This document shows, one piece after another, positions 1 through 6,264 of a stretch of DNA of 15,730 bases. Below the pieces are notes generated by a model. It searched no databases. It was not told the DNA's origin and worked only from the letters and a program-made list of their open reading frames with translations. Position 1 is the stretch's first letter; the number at the start of each line of letters is the position of its first letter. Source of the stretch: a virus (lineage: Duplodnaviria; Heunggongvirae; Uroviricota; Caudoviricetes); IMG/VR virus record IMGVR_UViG_2563366867_000010; one strand, 5' to 3'. The translations under genes were made by a program, and so were the position numbers.

Positions 1-135
1 CTACGAAGACAGCGACCTCCGTCTGGCCGGTTCGGATCCGTACCTCGCGAGGTCTTTCCTCGTTACCAGTGCCGTCACTATGACGGTTAAACAGATGACG
101 ATCAGGGCGATTAACATCGCCTTTTGCTGCTTCAT
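1..135 (-). CDS. hokD: Hok/Gef-family small membrane toxin homolog (HokD/RelF-like); C-terminal region frameshifted, possibly a pseudogene
   Basis: Translation from ATG at 135..133 gives MKQQKAMLIALIVICLTVIVTALVTRKDL, which matches the HokD N-terminus and transmembrane segment as I recall it. AAGGAG lies 9 nt upstream. After codon DL the frame diverges (..ARYGSEPARRRSLSS*), while the conserved Hok tail EVRIRTGQTEVAVF is encoded in the adjacent frame (about 47 down to 4), consistent with a 1-nt deletion at the conserved Cys codon. Stop sits at 3..1, the window edge. Confidence 0.7.
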   Translation of the reverse strand: MKQQKAMLIALIVICLTVIVTALVTRKDLARYGSEPARRRSLSS

Positions 136-310
136 AGCCTGCTTCTCCTTGCCTTTCGGCACGTAAGAGGCTAACCTGCATGTGTTCAGCATGAAATTGG
201 CCTCAGATTAATGTTAAGCGTCTTGCAGGACACGTAATGTTAACTGGGGCTTTTCTCCGTCTGCCTTACGGCAGCATGCCCGAGGCAGACCCCCTCAAGC
301 ACCCGCAGTC

Positions 311-2671: not shown

Positions 2672-4330
2672 TTACTGACTCAGACTGTTTCTGTTTTTCT
2701 GAAGTTGTTGCTTTGCCTGCATGATCTGCCACGACTCACTGCCTTCCGGCACCCCAGACCGGACACCATGAAGCAGGGACAGAGAAAGCGCTTCGGGGGA
2801 TTTTTCCGTCATCTTCTCTGCCCGGCTACGCCCTCTGGCAAACCGGATGAATTTGTGTCTGATGTAATTACTGACCTCCGGGGTGATTTCCATCGGAAAA
2901 CCGCTCAGCCCGTCAGGCCATTCGCCGAACTTCTCCCGGAAAGTGTGAGCGCACCATCCATCGCTGACCGGTCGCCCCAGAGAGGCACGCTGACGCTGAT
3001 AGAATTTGATCTGACTCCACCAGGCCTGTTTGTCGCTTTTGGTGTAAATTTTTTCGTCCTTGCTGAGTTTCCTGATATTGCGGCGGGTATCTGTGTTCAC
3101 ATCCTCACCAGCCAGCGGTTTAAATCCGCATTTCGGACAGACATAAACACCTGCCGGTTTCATGAAATGACACCCCGGACATTCTTTCGGCAGTTTTTCT
3201 TCCCGAATTTCGTTACCACGTGATGATGACACCTGCATCCCGTCGTTTTTGCCGGGCAGTTCGTCATACTCAATATTTTCAGGAAATCCCAGGCGATGAA
3301 CCGTACCGGAATGGTCGAAAATCAGGCATGACTCCTTGCCTGGCGCTGTACGCAATCCTCTCCCAATCGCCTGAAGCCAGCGAATCTCTGATTTTGTCGG
3401 GCGTGCGTAAATGATGCACCGGACATCACTGTCAAATCCCGCCACCAGAACGCCAACGCTGACAATGATTTTCGTCGCTCCCGTTTCAAAACGACTGATC
3501 ATTAACTGACGCTCATCATGTGGCGTTTCAGCAACCATCACCTCTGCGTTAATTCCGGCTTTGTTGAACTGCATGGTCACGAAGCTGGCATGCGTTTTAT
3601 TGACGCAGAACGCCACTGTCGGTAAATCCCTTCCGTTACACAGCCAGTTATCGACAATATCGCCAACCAGATCCGCGCCGCACATAATCTCTGCCAGTTG
3701 TGATTCGTCGTAATCCCTGCCGTACTCCATTGAGACTTTCGTTTTTACACCTTCCAGATCCGGTTTCGTGGGCGCATAAAATTCGTAATTGCTCAGTTCG
3801 CCACGCTGGATCAGTTCCCCTATAGTGGTCGGCTTGAGAAGACGCTGGTAATAACGCCCCAGGAACGATGAAAAGGGTGTACCGGACAACCCAATCACCT
3901 TCACATTTCCCTCTGCAACCAGTCGTTCGATTTCCGTGAGGATGCGGCGCTTACGGAGATGCGCTTCATCAATAATCAGCAGGTCGATATTCTGAGGAAA
4001 ATCACGGCGAATCAGCGTATCCGCACTGGAAATCTGAATCAGTCGTGACGGGTCGTTATTGGGATGAGCACGCCAGATAAAGCTGATTTCATCCCCGGAA
4101 AGCCCGTACTGAACAAAGCGCTGTGCTGTCTGGTTGATCAAAATGGTATAAGGAACGACAAACAGAACGCGCATGCCACGGCTTACCAGACCAGCAGTGA
4201 TGAACGCCGCCAGGCCGGTTTTACCACTCCCTGTAGGCATGTACATCATGAAGGACTGATATGTTTTCCAGTCATGACGCAACATATTCAGCGCACGTTC
4301 CTGAGCAAAATTCGGCTTGATATTCAGCAT
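2672..4330 (-). CDS. Superfamily-2 DEAD/DEAH-box helicase with C-terminal Cys4 zinc ribbon (probable replicative helicase of the prophage)
   Basis: Walker A MPTGSGKT, motif II IIDEAH, motif III SGT, motif VI QAIGRGLR, plus CPGCHF..(10 aa)..CPKCG. GGGAG lies 6 nt upstream of ATG 4330. Confidence 0.85.
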   Translation of the reverse strand: MLNIKPNFAQERALNMLRHDWKTYQSFMMYMPTGSGKTGLAAFITAGLVSRGMRVLFVVPYTILINQTAQRFVQYGLSGDEISFIWRAHPNNDPSRLIQISSADTLIRRDFPQNIDLLIIDEAHLRKRRILTEIERLVAEGNVKVIGLSGTPFSSFLGRYYQRLLKPTTIGELIQRGELSNYEFYAPTKPDLEGVKTKVSMEYGRDYDESQLAEIMCGADLVGDIVDNWLCNGRDLPTVAFCVNKTHASFVTMQFNKAGINAEVMVAETPHDERQLMISRFETGATKIIVSVGVLVAGFDSDVRCIIYARPTKSEIRWLQAIGRGLRTAPGKESCLIFDHSGTVHRLGFPENIEYDELPGKNDGMQVSSSRGNEIREEKLPKECPGCHFMKPAGVYVCPKCGFKPLAGEDVNTDTRRNIRKLSKDEKIYTKSDKQAWWSQIKFYQRQRASLGRPVSDGWCAHTFREKFGEWPDGLSGFPMEITPEVSNYIRHKFIRFARGRSRAEKMTEKSPEALSLSLLHGVRSGVPEGSESWQIMQAKQQLQKNRNSLSQ

Positions 4331-4363: not shown

Positions 4364-4732
4364 TTACTTAAACCGGGTCGCCCGGATGACATCCACACCA
4401 TCGGCGATATAACGCTGTGGATGTTTGCCATCACGGAGAAAAACAAATCCCGAAATGCCTTCAGGAAGCGCTCGAATTTTCATCAGTGAACGCTGACGGG
4501 GTGATCGGTTATCCACCTCAACTGCGCAACGCTGACCATCGGGAGAAATAACCAGAAGATCGATAAATCCCCTGCGATCACCTTTCAGCCTGACAGTGAA
4601 ACAGCGTTGCAACTCACAGCCCAGAGATTTGATTTTCTTTTGCAGAACGTAGTCGAATGTGACCTTGTCCATTCCATGTCCGAATTCCTCTTCCAGAAGG
4701 TTGATTAGTACCAGTTTCAGTTCAGCGCTCAT
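4364..4732 (-). CDS. Hypothetical protein, possible nuclease-like fold (tentative)
   Basis: 122-aa ORF immediately upstream of the helicase on the same strand. Contains IDLLVISPDGQRCAVEVDNR, loosely reminiscent of a PD-(D/E)xK core but not a clean match. Weak RBS, so the start is uncertain. Confidence 0.5.
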   Translation of the reverse strand: MSAELKLVLINLLEEEFGHGMDKVTFDYVLQKKIKSLGCELQRCFTVRLKGDRRGFIDLLVISPDGQRCAVEVDNRSPRQRSLMKIRALPEGISGFVFLRDGKHPQRYIADGVDVIRATRFK

Positions 4733-4868
4733 ATTTTAACCATGATGTACTAGTTTGCTGATACGTCCGTTTTTTCAGGGATGCCCCTTTAGATCGAGAT
4801 CTACCTAACCTCTGTACCCGTCTGTTGGAAGATCCCGTTCCAGTGCTTCGCACTAACACACGGGCACT

Positions 4869-4886
4869 CCCCCCCTTACCCCCCCC
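4869..4886. repeat. Two homopolymeric C tracts (C7 at 4869..4875 and C8 at 4879..4886) separated by TTA
   Basis: Read directly from the sequence, inside a 243-bp non-coding gap (4733..4975) of the minus-strand early operon. Tracts of this length are prone to slipped-strand variation. Confidence 0.9.
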
Positions 4887-4975
4887 TCTCAACTTATGCA
4901 CTAGCTTGGTAGTACACAGGTGCATCCTGAGAAGTGGGGTCTCAGCCCGTCGGTCACCTTTAAGACCAACACCAT

Positions 4976-5269
4976 TCAGGTACGCTGTTGCGTTCCTGCC
5001 AGGGGCGGCTGAGTCGTATACCCCTGTAATGCACGCCCGTGTGTTTCAACGAACCTGCGCAGCCGTACATTGGCTTCATGCCTCGCTCTGTTCTCCTTAC
5101 GGAATGAAACAGGCTCGGAATCAAAAGTAACTTCGTAAACCTCCGCGTATTTCAGGGCGACCTTCTGTCTCAGTGAGGAAGGCAGGCTCTGTAACTGCCG
5201 CTTAATCCACTCTGAATCTGCCTGGCTGTACCTGGCAGGCATCTCCATCTGAACGTAATCAGGGGACAT
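4976..5269 (-). CDS. Hypothetical early protein (cII-position)
   Basis: 97-aa ORF with GGAGG 4 nt upstream of ATG 5269. It starts 18 bp downstream of the stop of the Cro-position gene. No recognisable motif. Confidence 0.55.
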   Translation of the reverse strand: MSPDYVQMEMPARYSQADSEWIKRQLQSLPSSLRQKVALKYAEVYEVTFDSEPVSFRKENRARHEANVRLRRFVETHGRALQGYTTQPPLAGTQQRT

Positions 5270-5287: not shown

Positions 5288-5497
5288 TCACGATTCATGA
5301 CTGGCATTCATGAGCGACGGATGCTGATAAGGAATTTTGGGATCCAGATGACAAAGGATCGCCACATCTTCCGGCACACCTCGGGTTTTCCACTTTCCAA
5401 CGCCCTGACTACCTCTAGGTTTTCCTCTCTTAGGGAAACGGCGACCAATTGCAGCATTGGTTTTAAACTCAGCTTTTAAAATTTCGTAAAGAGTCAT
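5288..5497 (-). CDS. Small basic protein at the Cro position (putative early regulator, divergent from the repressor)
   Basis: 69-aa ORF transcribed divergently from the CI-like repressor, with the operator cluster between them. It is Lys/Arg-rich, but I cannot recognise a classic HTH. The functional call is positional only. Confidence 0.45.
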   Translation of the reverse strand: MTLYEILKAEFKTNAAIGRRFPKRGKPRGSQGVGKWKTRGVPEDVAILCHLDPKIPYQHPSLMNASHES

Positions 5498-5513
5498 CTC
5501 TCACTCACTGATT

Positions 5514-5583
5514 GATACTTTAGCATCCATAAATATACAACAAATGAATCTAAAGTATCAAGAATATGTGCTACTTTAGTATC
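5514..5583. promoter_or_regulatory. Operator cluster (three 14-bp palindromic sites) with divergent promoters between the Cro-position gene and the repressor
   Basis: Sites GATACTTTAGCATC (5514..5527), GAATCTAAAGTATC (5546..5559) and GCTACTTTAGTATC (5570..5583), all variants of GATACTTTAGTATC. Candidate minus-strand promoter: -35 TTGATA (rc of 5556..5561), -10 TATATT (rc of 5532..5537), 18-nt spacer. Confidence 0.65.
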
Positions 5584-5607
5584 GACCGAAAAAACAGGAG
5601 AGATAAA

Positions 5608-6264
5608 ATGAGAACTTTGGGAGAGCGCCTTAGCAGCGCCAGGCAACGGGCAGGATTGACACAAGATGCATTAGCAAAAAAAGCCGGCATAACCCGCGTG
5701 GCTATAAGCAAAGCAGAGCAAGGACTTACTAAAAGCTTCAACGGAGATACTTTATTAAAGGTAGCCACAGCCCTAAACTGCTCTCCACAATGGCTACAAA
5801 ATGGAGAAGAACAATCTGTAAACTGGGAAAACAATGTTAAGAGTTGTCCTCAAAAAGACGCATTTCATTCCTATCCCGTTATTAACTGGGTCCAGGCCGG
5901 ACTATTCTCTACTGCTGGAGATGATTACAGCATGTATGACCATGATAACTGGAGACATTCTGTCAAATATGCAGGTGAAAGAGGTTTTTGGCTTGAAGTA
6001 CATGGTGATTCAATGACCTCGCCTGTTGGAATCACCTTTCCTGAGGGTATGTCTATTCTCGTAAACCCAGACAAAGCTGTACATTCAGGCTGTTACGTTA
6101 TCGCAAGAAAAAAATCAACCAACGAAGCAACATTCAAAAAATATGTGACTGAAATGGGAAGATCTTTCCTGAAACCACTCAATCCTCAGTATCCCATCAT
6201 TGAAATAGATGATGATTGTGAAATCGTCGGCGTGATCGTGGATGCCCGATGGGATATTTTCTAA
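5608..6264 (+). CDS. CI-like prophage repressor (N-terminal HTH_XRE + C-terminal S24 LexA-type peptidase domain)
   Basis: N-terminal HTH (LGERLSSARQRAGLTQDALAKKAGITRVAISKAEQG), Ala-Gly autocleavage context (VQAGLF), catalytic Ser in GDSM and Lys in FKKY. AGGAG lies 7 nt upstream of ATG 5608; the ORF-track start at 5566 is probably too far upstream. Confidence 0.85.
   Translation: MRTLGERLSSARQRAGLTQDALAKKAGITRVAISKAEQGLTKSFNGDTLLKVATALNCSPQWLQNGEEQSVNWENNVKSCPQKDAFHSYPVINWVQAGLFSTAGDDYSMYDHDNWRHSVKYAGERGFWLEVHGDSMTSPVGITFPEGMSILVNPDKAVHSGCYVIARKKSTNEATFKKYVTEMGRSFLKPLNPQYPIIEIDDDCEIVGVIVDARWDIF

Follow-up and report, generated by a model that had tools for sequence, protein, structure and literature searches.

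A conserved non-coding element with paired G tracts at the head of an Eru1-like phage replication module, a candidate site for the start or control of replication

The early operon and the anatomy of its non-coding element

The window analyzed here, a stretch of 15,730 nucleotides (nt) from a caudoviricete (IMG/VR record IMGVR_UViG_2563366867_000010), belongs to an Escherichia coli lambdoid prophage, near-identical copies of which are present in RefSeq chromosomes. Its early rightward operon lies on the minus strand and leads from a promoter-like site found by the promoter scan (5561-5532) through the cro-position open reading frame (ORF; 5288-5497) and ORF97 (4976-5269), which encodes a small basic three-helix protein, to a 243-nt gap (4733-4975, minus strand) bounded by the stop codon of ORF97 and the start codon of ORF122. 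The gap is followed on the same strand by ORF122 (4364-4732), an optional small gene, and by two genes identified through Pfam and PHROG matches, a superfamily 2 (SF2) DEAD/DEAH helicase (2672-4330) and a Zn-ribbon/toprim primase (1702-2670), past which the gene order is ORF288, Q and hok/sok; the CI-like repressor is encoded on the plus strand (5566-6264). The gap proved to be a genuine non-coding element, strongly conserved and hitherto without an annotation, and it is the strongest candidate for the site at which the module composed of ORF97, the element itself, the helicase and the primase starts or controls its DNA replication.

Read 5' to 3' on the minus strand, the element comprises hairpins with a UUAAAGGU loop, a variable spacer, a long hairpin (P0), paired G tracts, the core boxes, an A run and a palindrome (palindrome 2). 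The initial annotation had drawn attention to two poly-C runs, C7 at 4869-4875 and C8 at 4879-4886, and their positions were confirmed; since the early operon is on the minus strand, these runs are G tracts on the RNA-like strand, where they read G8-TAA-G7 (4869-4886) and thus lie on the non-template strand. They proved to be the most conserved hallmark of the element, as paired tracts were present in every complete copy, with lengths ranging from 4 to 8 G, G6-TAA-G6 being the commonest arrangement (45/104 loci) and GGGGGTAAGGGGG being invariant across four divergent types, a Shiga toxin (Stx) 2a phage among them. Within the window, no other run of six or more G was found in 15.7 kb, and two such runs separated by at most 6 nt appeared in none of 200 shuffles.

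Downstream of the tracts, the core shared by the different types consists of the invariant boxes UUCCAACAG (4822-4830, minus strand) and AUNGGUUAGGUAG and of a small GATC-bearing hairpin; in summary form, it can be described by the invariant boxes UUCCAACAG and GGUUAGGUAG and by the GATC sites retained after GGUUAGGUAG. The most conserved block among 48 representative copies, which were also used for RNAalifold and for the GATC and G-quadruplex counts, and the Stx phage lies at 4790-4813 (minus strand) and contains the invariant box AGAGGUUAGGUAG, after which comes the P4 hairpin UAGAU-CUCG-AUCUA. The window has two GATC sites (4792-4795 and 4798-4801), and GATC was kept at one of two fixed offsets in all representatives, 16/48 having both, 32/48 having one and 0/48 having neither. 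Changes in P4 lead only to G.U pairs, and its inner pairs never show compensatory Watson-Crick changes. The box UUCCAACAG is part of a type-specific three-way region (4814-4867, minus strand) with the helices P1 (GUGCCCGU/ACGGGUAC), P2 (GUGC-GAA-GCAC, 4843-4853) and P3 (GGAA/UUCC), in which isolated compensatory changes could be spotted by eye for P1 (CCCG/CGGG to CCUG/CAGG in Klebsiella phages), for P2 (GCGC/GCGC in locus L007) and possibly for P3 (GGCC/GGCC in the Stx phage). Additionally, 11 nt of the core (4855-4865, GCCCGUGUGUU) are perfectly complementary to the ORF97 coding sequence (5035-5045, AACACACGGGC, encoding the conserved ETHGRA motif); this pairing was dropped because phi467-type phages keep the core sequence and lack the partner, and it is probably lineage-specific or due to chance.

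Toward the 3' end, the element carries an A6 run (4770-4775, minus strand) and palindrome 2 (GTATCAG-CAAA-CTAGTAC, 4747-4764, minus strand), the counterpart of the 18-nt palindrome 1 (GTACTA-N6-TAGTGC, 4898-4915, minus strand) located upstream of the tracts. These palindromes were the only matches of GTAYYA-N6-TAGTRC in the window, where 0.23 matches are expected by chance, and their spacing is 147-158 nt in every type carrying them. Palindrome 2 often contains C.A mismatches and is therefore a poor hairpin, its GTAC ends being kept while the hairpin pairing decays. In the L007/L070 type both flanks deviate from the GTAC palindromes and have ..GGATGT/..AGATGT 8-mers instead, and the palindromes are missing from the Serratia-type and Stx-phage copies, in which the G tracts and boxes are kept. 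The GTAC palindromes were also considered as CI/Cro operators and rejected, as the immunity operators (5512-5583) are unrelated repeats of the TGATACTTTAGCATC kind, among which two perfectly inverted 12-nt copies (5512-5523/5550-5561) flank the divergent promoters.

The 5' part of the element is dominated by hairpins. The hairpins designated HL, represented in the window by GUUGGUC-UUAAAGGU-GACCGAC (4949-4970, minus strand), begin directly after the ORF97 stop codon and occur one to three times per locus with a 26-nt spacing. In 45 distinct instances the stems differ freely beneath a fixed 8-nt loop, and the first five stem pairs comprise 190 Watson-Crick pairs, 18 sense-strand G.U pairs and only 3 A.C pairs, the latter being what folding of the antisense strand would need. 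Moreover, every one of the 122 hairpinned UUAAAGGU instances is on the sense strand at a distance of 40-140 nt upstream of the core, and about 750 kb of loci contained no other. The long hairpin P0 (4887-4934, minus strand) has palindrome 1 at its tip and a purine-rich 3' arm that abuts the G tracts, and it is predicted in nearly all sequence types despite differing arm sequences, with a mean energy of -24.3 kcal/mol on the sense strand and -16.8 kcal/mol on the antisense strand and about 4.3 G.U pairs per structure. In locus L014 (1777-1799, with the predicted terminator at 1783-1799) and related type-F loci, an intrinsic terminator (GGTAAC-TCC-GGTTACC followed by T6) lies between the UUAAAGGU hairpins and P0, so placed that the replication genes lie past it, and its U run doubles as the P0 5' arm.

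The two inverted repeats picked out by the initial annotation turned out to be the least conserved part of the element. The first was given as ATGCAC and GTGCAT separated by 17 nt; ATGCAC is indeed at 4896-4901, but GTGCAT is at 4920-4925, which makes the spacer 18 nt, and only the inner GTACTA..TAGTGC core, namely palindrome 1, is common to other phages. The second, CTGAGA and TCTCAG separated by 7 nt, is located where it had been placed and forms the hairpin CUGAGA-CCCCACU-UCUCAG (4927-4945, minus strand), but it is confined to the lineage of the window, other types having T-rich or terminator-like sequence at the equivalent position. Because its 3' arm is the P0 5' arm, this hairpin and P0 are mutually exclusive: in the lineage of the window, UCUCAG can pair either with the upstream CUGAGA, enclosing a loop with CCCC, or with UUGAGA beside the G tracts, as in P0. 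The minimum-free-energy fold of the window selects P0, and the exclusive pairings of UCUCAG (4887-4945, minus strand) could act as a switch.

Fold prediction on both strands and comparison with relatives for covariation, the checks proposed by the initial annotation, separated the two halves of the element. The sense strand folded with z = -2.9 and the antisense strand with z = -1.6, and the z-scores of the whole element were lower on the sense strand in 20 of 24 representatives. The 5' hairpins covary, but the helices of the core do not exceed shuffles. RNAalifold applied to the 48 representatives and to the P0 region recovered only palindrome 1 and GGAA/UUCC, with -4.7 kcal/mol for the core; a covariation scan of every column against every other yielded nothing beyond scattered pairs of the sort produced by shared ancestry; and the covariation score of a hand-drawn seven-helix model of the core was not above its shuffle control, so that no conserved fold is claimed for the core, which folds differently in different types. 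It should be considered that the MAFFT alignment loses register in the variable arms of the element. Altogether, structure seems to be what is conserved in the 5' part, and sequence in the core.

Distribution, linkage and non-coding status

Among 5426 complete E. coli genomes, 57 carried the element according to BLAST with the gap alone, and it was also recovered from phage phi467, Salmonella Fels-1 and two Klebsiella phages. In these relatives the stretch that begins with the G tracts and runs up to the following start codon is 80-88% identical, whereas the 5' third diverges. A set of 80 IMG/VR loci was collected through the helicase protein and searched with an nhmmer profile built from the element core. 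Exactly one copy, in the same orientation and just upstream of the helicase, was found in 78/80, corresponding to all loci with enough flanking sequence. Over the whole analysis, in which roughly 140 copies were collected besides the Stx-phage forms, the loci examined came from Escherichia, Salmonella Fels-1, Klebsiella, Yersinia, Serratia and Citrobacter, and each had a single copy in one orientation between the ORF97 gene and the helicase-primase pair. The scans of GTDB genomes and metagenomes relied on the DNA pattern alone and, since no helicase query was used, they are free of helicase bias. The helicase was downstream in all 18 true GTDB matches, which came from Yersinia, Serratia, Citrobacter, Enterobacter, Pseudescherichia, Pseudocitrobacter, Trabulsiella and Superficieibacter, while the metagenomes provided 36 true matches among 120, with the helicase present in 31/31 and an ORF97 homologue in 33/33 of those with enough flank. 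In the plasmid search the element was not found, the only match being one doubtful 439-kb record.

Since the element is kept in front of ORF122, an HNH endonuclease and the helicase alike, it does not serve as a translational operator dedicated to a single gene. Taken together, the exclusive linkage, the single copy, the fixed position and the indifference to the next gene point to a cis-acting site of the replication module, and we regard the gap as the cis-acting head of an Eru1-like module made of ORF97, the element, the SF2 helicase and the primase. The initial annotation had already suspected a functional non-coding element within the early operon and tied to the helicase-primase genes, and this much was borne out.

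Phages of the Eru1 replication type, mostly Stx phages, carry a shorter form of the element at the same place. It was found in 98 records, with TL-2011c, P13374, Ss-VASD and PA2 among them, and reads GGAGGGGGTAAGGGGG ... CCAGAAGGCAGGTACATAGGTTAGGTAGATC; the Stx phages keep the core and lack the HL hairpins. A more distant relative is Vibrio phage 1.115.B, whose helicase is 54% identical and in which an ORF97 homologue is followed by a non-coding gap of about 350 nt (L115 1710-2062). Instead of G tracts, this gap holds four iteron-like TACCG..AGTATT repeats, a number in keeping with the three or more direct repeats of an iteron-type origin. Its 5' part contains a strong intrinsic terminator (1731-1747) and two 18-nt repeats 26 nt apart, which is the spacing of the UUAAAGGU hairpins, and its 3' part has a purine-rich stretch, the four repeats and then a small RepL-annotated ORF. 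A scan of viral contigs with the Vibrio helicase gave no relatives.

Several observations establish the non-coding status of the gap and make a missed protein-coding gene, whether a 67-aa sense ORF or an antisense ORF, close to inconceivable. Such a gene might be suspected from the ATG-started, 67-codon sense ORF that spans the core in the window (4722-4925, minus strand), from the Klebsiella phage KPP5665-2 record, in which an over-extended coding sequence (CDS) crosses the element, and from the few stop codons of the antisense strand. However, all three sense frames close within 25-28 codons in many relatives, the antisense frames are open inconsistently across relatives, neither of them being open in all and none having a shared start codon, and the long antisense frames exist because that strand is pyrimidine-rich. 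In addition, the indels between types are not multiples of three, although they lie among otherwise invariant nucleotides. No ORF is thus conserved on either strand, and no CDS is annotated over the gap in RefSeq/GenBank records of close or distant relatives, with one exception, in agreement with the initial annotation. In deposited phage genomes, a 'hypothetical protein' or an extended neighboring CDS is drawn over the element in the records H145, H153, H154, H157-H159, H161, H162 and H164, in other phage records and in L006 (3530-4027); these calls are probably spurious.

The element also had no counterpart among described RNAs. Scanning the whole window against Rfam 15 at gathering scores returned only a full-length sok antitoxin RNA (130-304, minus strand; RF01794, 103 bits), which lies downstream of Q with a hok-family gene adjacent to it, the hok CDS of a RefSeq relative being annotated as frameshifted. 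Relaxing the Rfam threshold to E <= 10 for positions 4600-5100 added one noise match outside the gap, and ARAGORN detected neither tRNA nor tmRNA in the gap. Likewise, literature searches on G-quadruplex or R-loop phage origins, on Stx-phage small RNAs and on the conserved box sequence gave no account of the element. No Rfam family, annotation or paper describing the element was therefore found, whereas the kinds of mechanism proposed below are already known; the novelty would lie in their being used by temperate enterobacterial phages that encode an SF2 helicase and a primase of their own.

With regard to the proteins of the module, 104 loci were scored for neighboring genes. An ORF97 homologue was directly upstream of the element in 101 of them, whatever the immunity genes, compared with only 18 for the cro-type gene of the window. 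ORF97, which the initial annotation had placed at the cII position, is hence not an immunity gene and belongs to the replication module. The protein has the invariant motif EPVSxRxENRARHEANxRLRxF, within a basic, arginine-rich helix, and homologues in Stx2a phages (47% identity) and in the Vibrio phage (hhalign probability 98.9%). Its AlphaFold2 model shows three helices at low confidence (pLDDT 63), and profile searches of solved structures and Foldseek gave no usable fold match and no DNA-binding fold. ORF122 was present in 37/104 loci; it belongs to phrog_1347, has faint nuclease-like Pfam matches (PD-(D/E)xK/NERD-like) and is 37% identical to its Stx-phage counterpart, and a relationship with the RepL-like protein of the Vibrio phage was considered and rejected. 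In one E. coli lineage the ORF122 slot is occupied by a NUMOD4-HNH endonuclease (L007, 3659-4261), and in most loci it is empty. This position, between the element and the helicase, has the look of an insertion point for small selfish nuclease genes.

The nearest solved relatives of the helicase are RadD and, weakly, T4 UvsW (E = 7e-5), and the window helicase is 67% identical to that of an Eru1-type Stx2a phage. The Eru1 replication type was defined in non-lambdoid Shiga-toxin phages (PMC8044961), and the module described here corresponds to this replication unit. The papers on Eru types define the modules by their proteins and name no origin, control site or non-coding element (PMC8044961; PMC8951638). 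An O/RepA-like initiator was not recognizable in the module by Pfam, PHROG or structure-relative searches.

Candidate functions of the element

The reading that we favor, tentatively and as something short of probable, is that the element is a transcription-activated origin, or a control or licensing site, working through an R-loop formed at the G tracts. RNA polymerase starting at the early promoter (approximately 5532-5561, minus strand) would pass through ORF97 into the element, and the nascent RNA would fold as the UUAAAGGU-loop hairpin(s) and P0. The polymerase would then traverse the post-hairpin stretch, whose RNA-like strand is 42% G and 12% C and carries the two long G tracts, and the G-rich RNA may remain paired to the C-rich template as an R-loop, which a two-tract DNA:RNA hybrid G-quadruplex may lock. 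The exposed strand and the boxes (UUCCAACAG, GGUUAGGUAG and GATC) would finally provide a loading place for the helicase and primase of the module. Consistent with this proposal, the G tracts are always on the non-template strand, universal and unique in the window. The module is without a recognizable initiator, and the Vibrio gap at the same place looks like an iteron origin. The GATC sites kept in 48/48 representatives, the retained ends of palindrome 2 and the conservation of the core as sequence suggest signals at the DNA level, and the preference of the 5' hairpins for the sense strand resembles that of structured pre-primer RNAs. The replication origin put forward by the initial annotation remains the leading idea; we infer R-loop formation, helicase loading and origin activity itself from this combination of features.

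Some characteristics of the element weigh against this proposal. It has no AT-rich unwinding region beyond the 6-nt A run, no DnaA box and no iterons, features that together with three or more direct repeats would be looked for in an iteron-type origin; its only direct repeats are the one to three TTAAAGG hairpins and the two palindromes, and the GC content is 0.43-0.56 in 200-nt windows overlapping the gap. The canonical intramolecular G-quadruplex motif (four runs of at least three G separated by N1-7) was detected in the window and in only 24/48 representatives in all, failing in the phi467/Fels-1/Klebsiella, Yersinia and type-F copies, and in place of long runs the phi467/Fels-1 type shows broken tracts (GGAGGGGAGGGGGAGG). 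Moreover, the absence of the element from plasmids gives no sign that the module drives autonomous replication, the fixed orientation could simply be inherited, and sense hairpins and a 5'-leader placement are equally expected of a regulatory leader RNA.

Such a leader, which comes second in our ranking and is a credible possibility, would be an untranslated mRNA stretch of about 240 nt in which HL and P0 set the survival or translation of the helicase-primase message and so time its expression; this might come about by ORF97 binding to the UUAAAGGU loops, by RNase III cleavage of P0, by the G-rich, C-poor sequence shielding the message from Rho, or by alternative pairings. The element is transcribed as part of an operon and lacks a separate promoter, the HL stems covary under a fixed loop with 18 sense G.U against 3 A.C pairs, P0 arises from differing arms and is 7.5 kcal/mol better on the sense strand, the sense z-scores are mostly the lower ones, the TCTCAG arm of the window has two exclusive partners, and the gene for ORF97, with its invariant arginine-rich helix, ends right at the first hairpin. 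A leader RNA therefore accounts for the sense hairpins and the adjacent basic protein as well as the origin does. It accounts less well for the core, because the tracts and boxes, which are the most conserved part, have no conserved helices, with an RNAalifold energy of -4.7 kcal/mol and a covariation score not above shuffles; for the retention of GATC and the hairpin decay of palindrome 2, which point to a reading at the DNA level; for the Stx phages, which keep the core and not the HL hairpins; and for the variable gene immediately downstream (ORF122, HNH endonuclease or helicase), owing to which there is no fixed ribosome-binding site to control. A conventional protein-bound origin on double-stranded DNA, in which ORF97, ORF288 or the helicase C-terminus binds the GTAC-N10-GTAC palindromes and the boxes and melts the DNA between them, the tracts and RNA hairpins being secondary, seems unlikely. 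It would fit the two 18-bp palindromes with conserved GTAC ends that bracket the core, the 8-mers that replace them at both flanks of the L007/L070 type, the invariant boxes with GATC, and the iterons at the same position in the Vibrio relative. Nevertheless, the palindromes are absent from the Serratia-type and Stx copies, no AT-rich unwinding element is present, palindrome 1 looks like the apex of a hairpin formed on the sense strand and ORF97 has no recognized DNA-binding fold.

The remaining alternatives are RNA-based. An antitermination site of the nut or put kind, whose hairpins would load a factor on RNA polymerase or act directly on it to allow readthrough into the replication and Q genes, was among the possibilities raised by the initial annotation and is quite improbable. 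The conserved-loop hairpins, the terminator just downstream of them in some relatives (L014 1783-1799), the terminator after the ORF97 homologue in the Vibrio phage and the arginine-rich helix of the adjacent ORF97, in a window where no N-like gene was recognized, speak in its favor, but paired nutL/nutR- or putL/putR-type sites were not found, as nhmmer detected one copy per locus and a single hairpin and core in the 15.7-kb window including its leftward operon. Furthermore, the 8-nt UUAAAGGU loop on stems of 5-8 bp does not match boxB, with its short stem and GNRA-like pentaloop, and a boxA (CGCUCUUA-like) upstream of the hairpin is not conserved, since the CGCUCCUGA-like string is the end of ORF97 in some types and the window has GCGUACCUGA. 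Most types, the window included, have no terminator to overcome: in scans of the window and four relatives, terminators were predicted near the element only in some relatives, and no intrinsic terminator (GC-rich hairpin plus U run) was predicted on either strand of the window gap, so the terminator also suggested by the initial annotation was not supported. The invariant G tracts and boxes would in any case be left unexplained.

Even less probable is a free-standing small RNA, in the sense direction or antisense to the ORF97 message, made phase-variable by the homopolymers. The lambda OOP antisense RNA is encoded between cII and the replication genes, the same map position as that of the element, and the region folds better than shuffles. 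Nonetheless, no sigma-70-like promoter was predicted inside the element in the window and four relatives, and the plus strand of the gap showed neither a promoter- nor a terminator-like site for an OOP-like transcript; even at E = 10 Rfam gave nothing, folding is poorer on the antisense strand, and the element never occurs apart from the module. As for phase variation, the G-tract length does vary from 6 to 8 among copies at least 94% identical, so slippage is real, but every tract length from 4 to 8 is found in intact modules and an on/off phase switch is consequently not indicated.

The element is of practical interest because Eru1 phages carry stx2a in outbreak strains, where they are reported as less stable lysogens, and because phage replication multiplies toxin genes after induction; it offers a precise and mutable target of 100-240 nt for the question of how these phages start or gate replication. 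In the most elaborate version of our proposal, which we consider doubtful, Eru1-like temperate enterobacterial phages, including the Stx2a phages of the O104:H4 and O103:H25 outbreaks, would initiate replication without a classical initiator, through tracts resembling those of mitochondrial conserved sequence block (CSB) II and an R-loop stabilized by a hybrid G-quadruplex, on which their own helicase and primase would assemble with ORF97 and the hairpins tuning the process. If the element is instead a leader RNA, it would still be a widespread and well-delimited unannotated element with conserved-loop hairpins and ORF97 as a probable partner protein, and it would merit an RNA family entry and the correction of the spurious CDS calls.

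Comparison with known systems

The element shares with lambda nutR and the HK022 put sites the presence of conserved-loop RNA hairpins in the early rightward transcript near a gene for a small arginine-rich protein, upstream of a terminator in some relatives. In HK022, put consists of two specific stem-loops of about 70 nt with a direct action on RNA polymerase. The phage element differs from both systems in having one site per phage without a leftward counterpart, an 8-nt UUAAAGGU loop and no conserved boxA, and neither system has G tracts or invariant boxes. Iteron origins, such as the lambda ori in O, the P4 ori/crr and, by its repeats, the gap of Vibrio phage 1.115.B, are likewise cis sites linked to replication genes; unlike them, the enterobacterial element has no iteron array, DnaA box or AT-rich region.

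Transcription is put to use at the T4 origins oriF and oriG, where the transcript of an upstream promoter forms an R-loop, the displaced strand loads the phage helicase and the SF2 protein UvsW acts on R-loops. The window helicase matches UvsW weakly (E = 7e-5), a similarity limited to the generic SF2 core, and the T4 origins use an AT-rich unwinding element, which the phage element lacks, and not G tracts. In the ColE1 plasmid, a G-rich segment of RNA II pairs with the C-rich template and forms a persistent hybrid at the origin, with no plasmid-encoded initiator. The phage element has a comparable succession of structured 5' RNA, namely the HL and P0 stem-loops, and a G-rich segment (42% G, 12% C), as in a structured pre-primer RNA. 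In contrast to ColE1, no promoter for an RNA I-like antisense transcript was predicted in the phage gap, the element is part of an mRNA leader and not of a dedicated transcript, and there is neither sequence similarity nor an Rfam match. Priming by RNA II has been summarized together with the RNA-based prophage origins of cluster A mycobacteriophages, which have no RepA-type initiator and need a region expressing a non-coding RNA (PMC7157519). The latter are also temperate phages without a RepA-type initiator, but they are extrachromosomal parABS prophages of Actinobacteria with unrelated sequences and no linked helicase-primase module.

A close parallel is provided by mitochondrial CSB II, where replication is reported to be primed by a stable R-loop with DNA:RNA hybrid G-quadruplexes arising at G tracts (PMC3488243; PMC4176368) and where the polymorphic tract length tunes the behavior of the polymerase, acting as a rheostat (PMC5027508). 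There is no homology between the two. The phage element would use the bacterial multisubunit polymerase and mitochondria use a T7-like enzyme; moreover, no U-rich stretch follows the phage tracts, which are broken (GGAGGGGAGGGGGAGG) in the phi467/Fels-1 type, the phage encodes its own primase, and the hybrid in the phage is putative. The resemblance lies in two long G tracts, 1-3 nt apart, on the non-template strand and downstream of a promoter that also serves gene expression: as in the tract arrangement described for CSB II (PMC4176368), paired tracts of 4-8 G were present in all complete copies with a promoter-like site upstream, and tract length varies between near-identical copies in the phage element too. 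If the tracts do act through an R-loop or a hybrid G-quadruplex, the element would be a bacterial-virus counterpart of CSB II operated by the multisubunit RNA polymerase of the host, and G-tract length could be a heritable rheostat of replication and thus of toxin gene dosage after induction.

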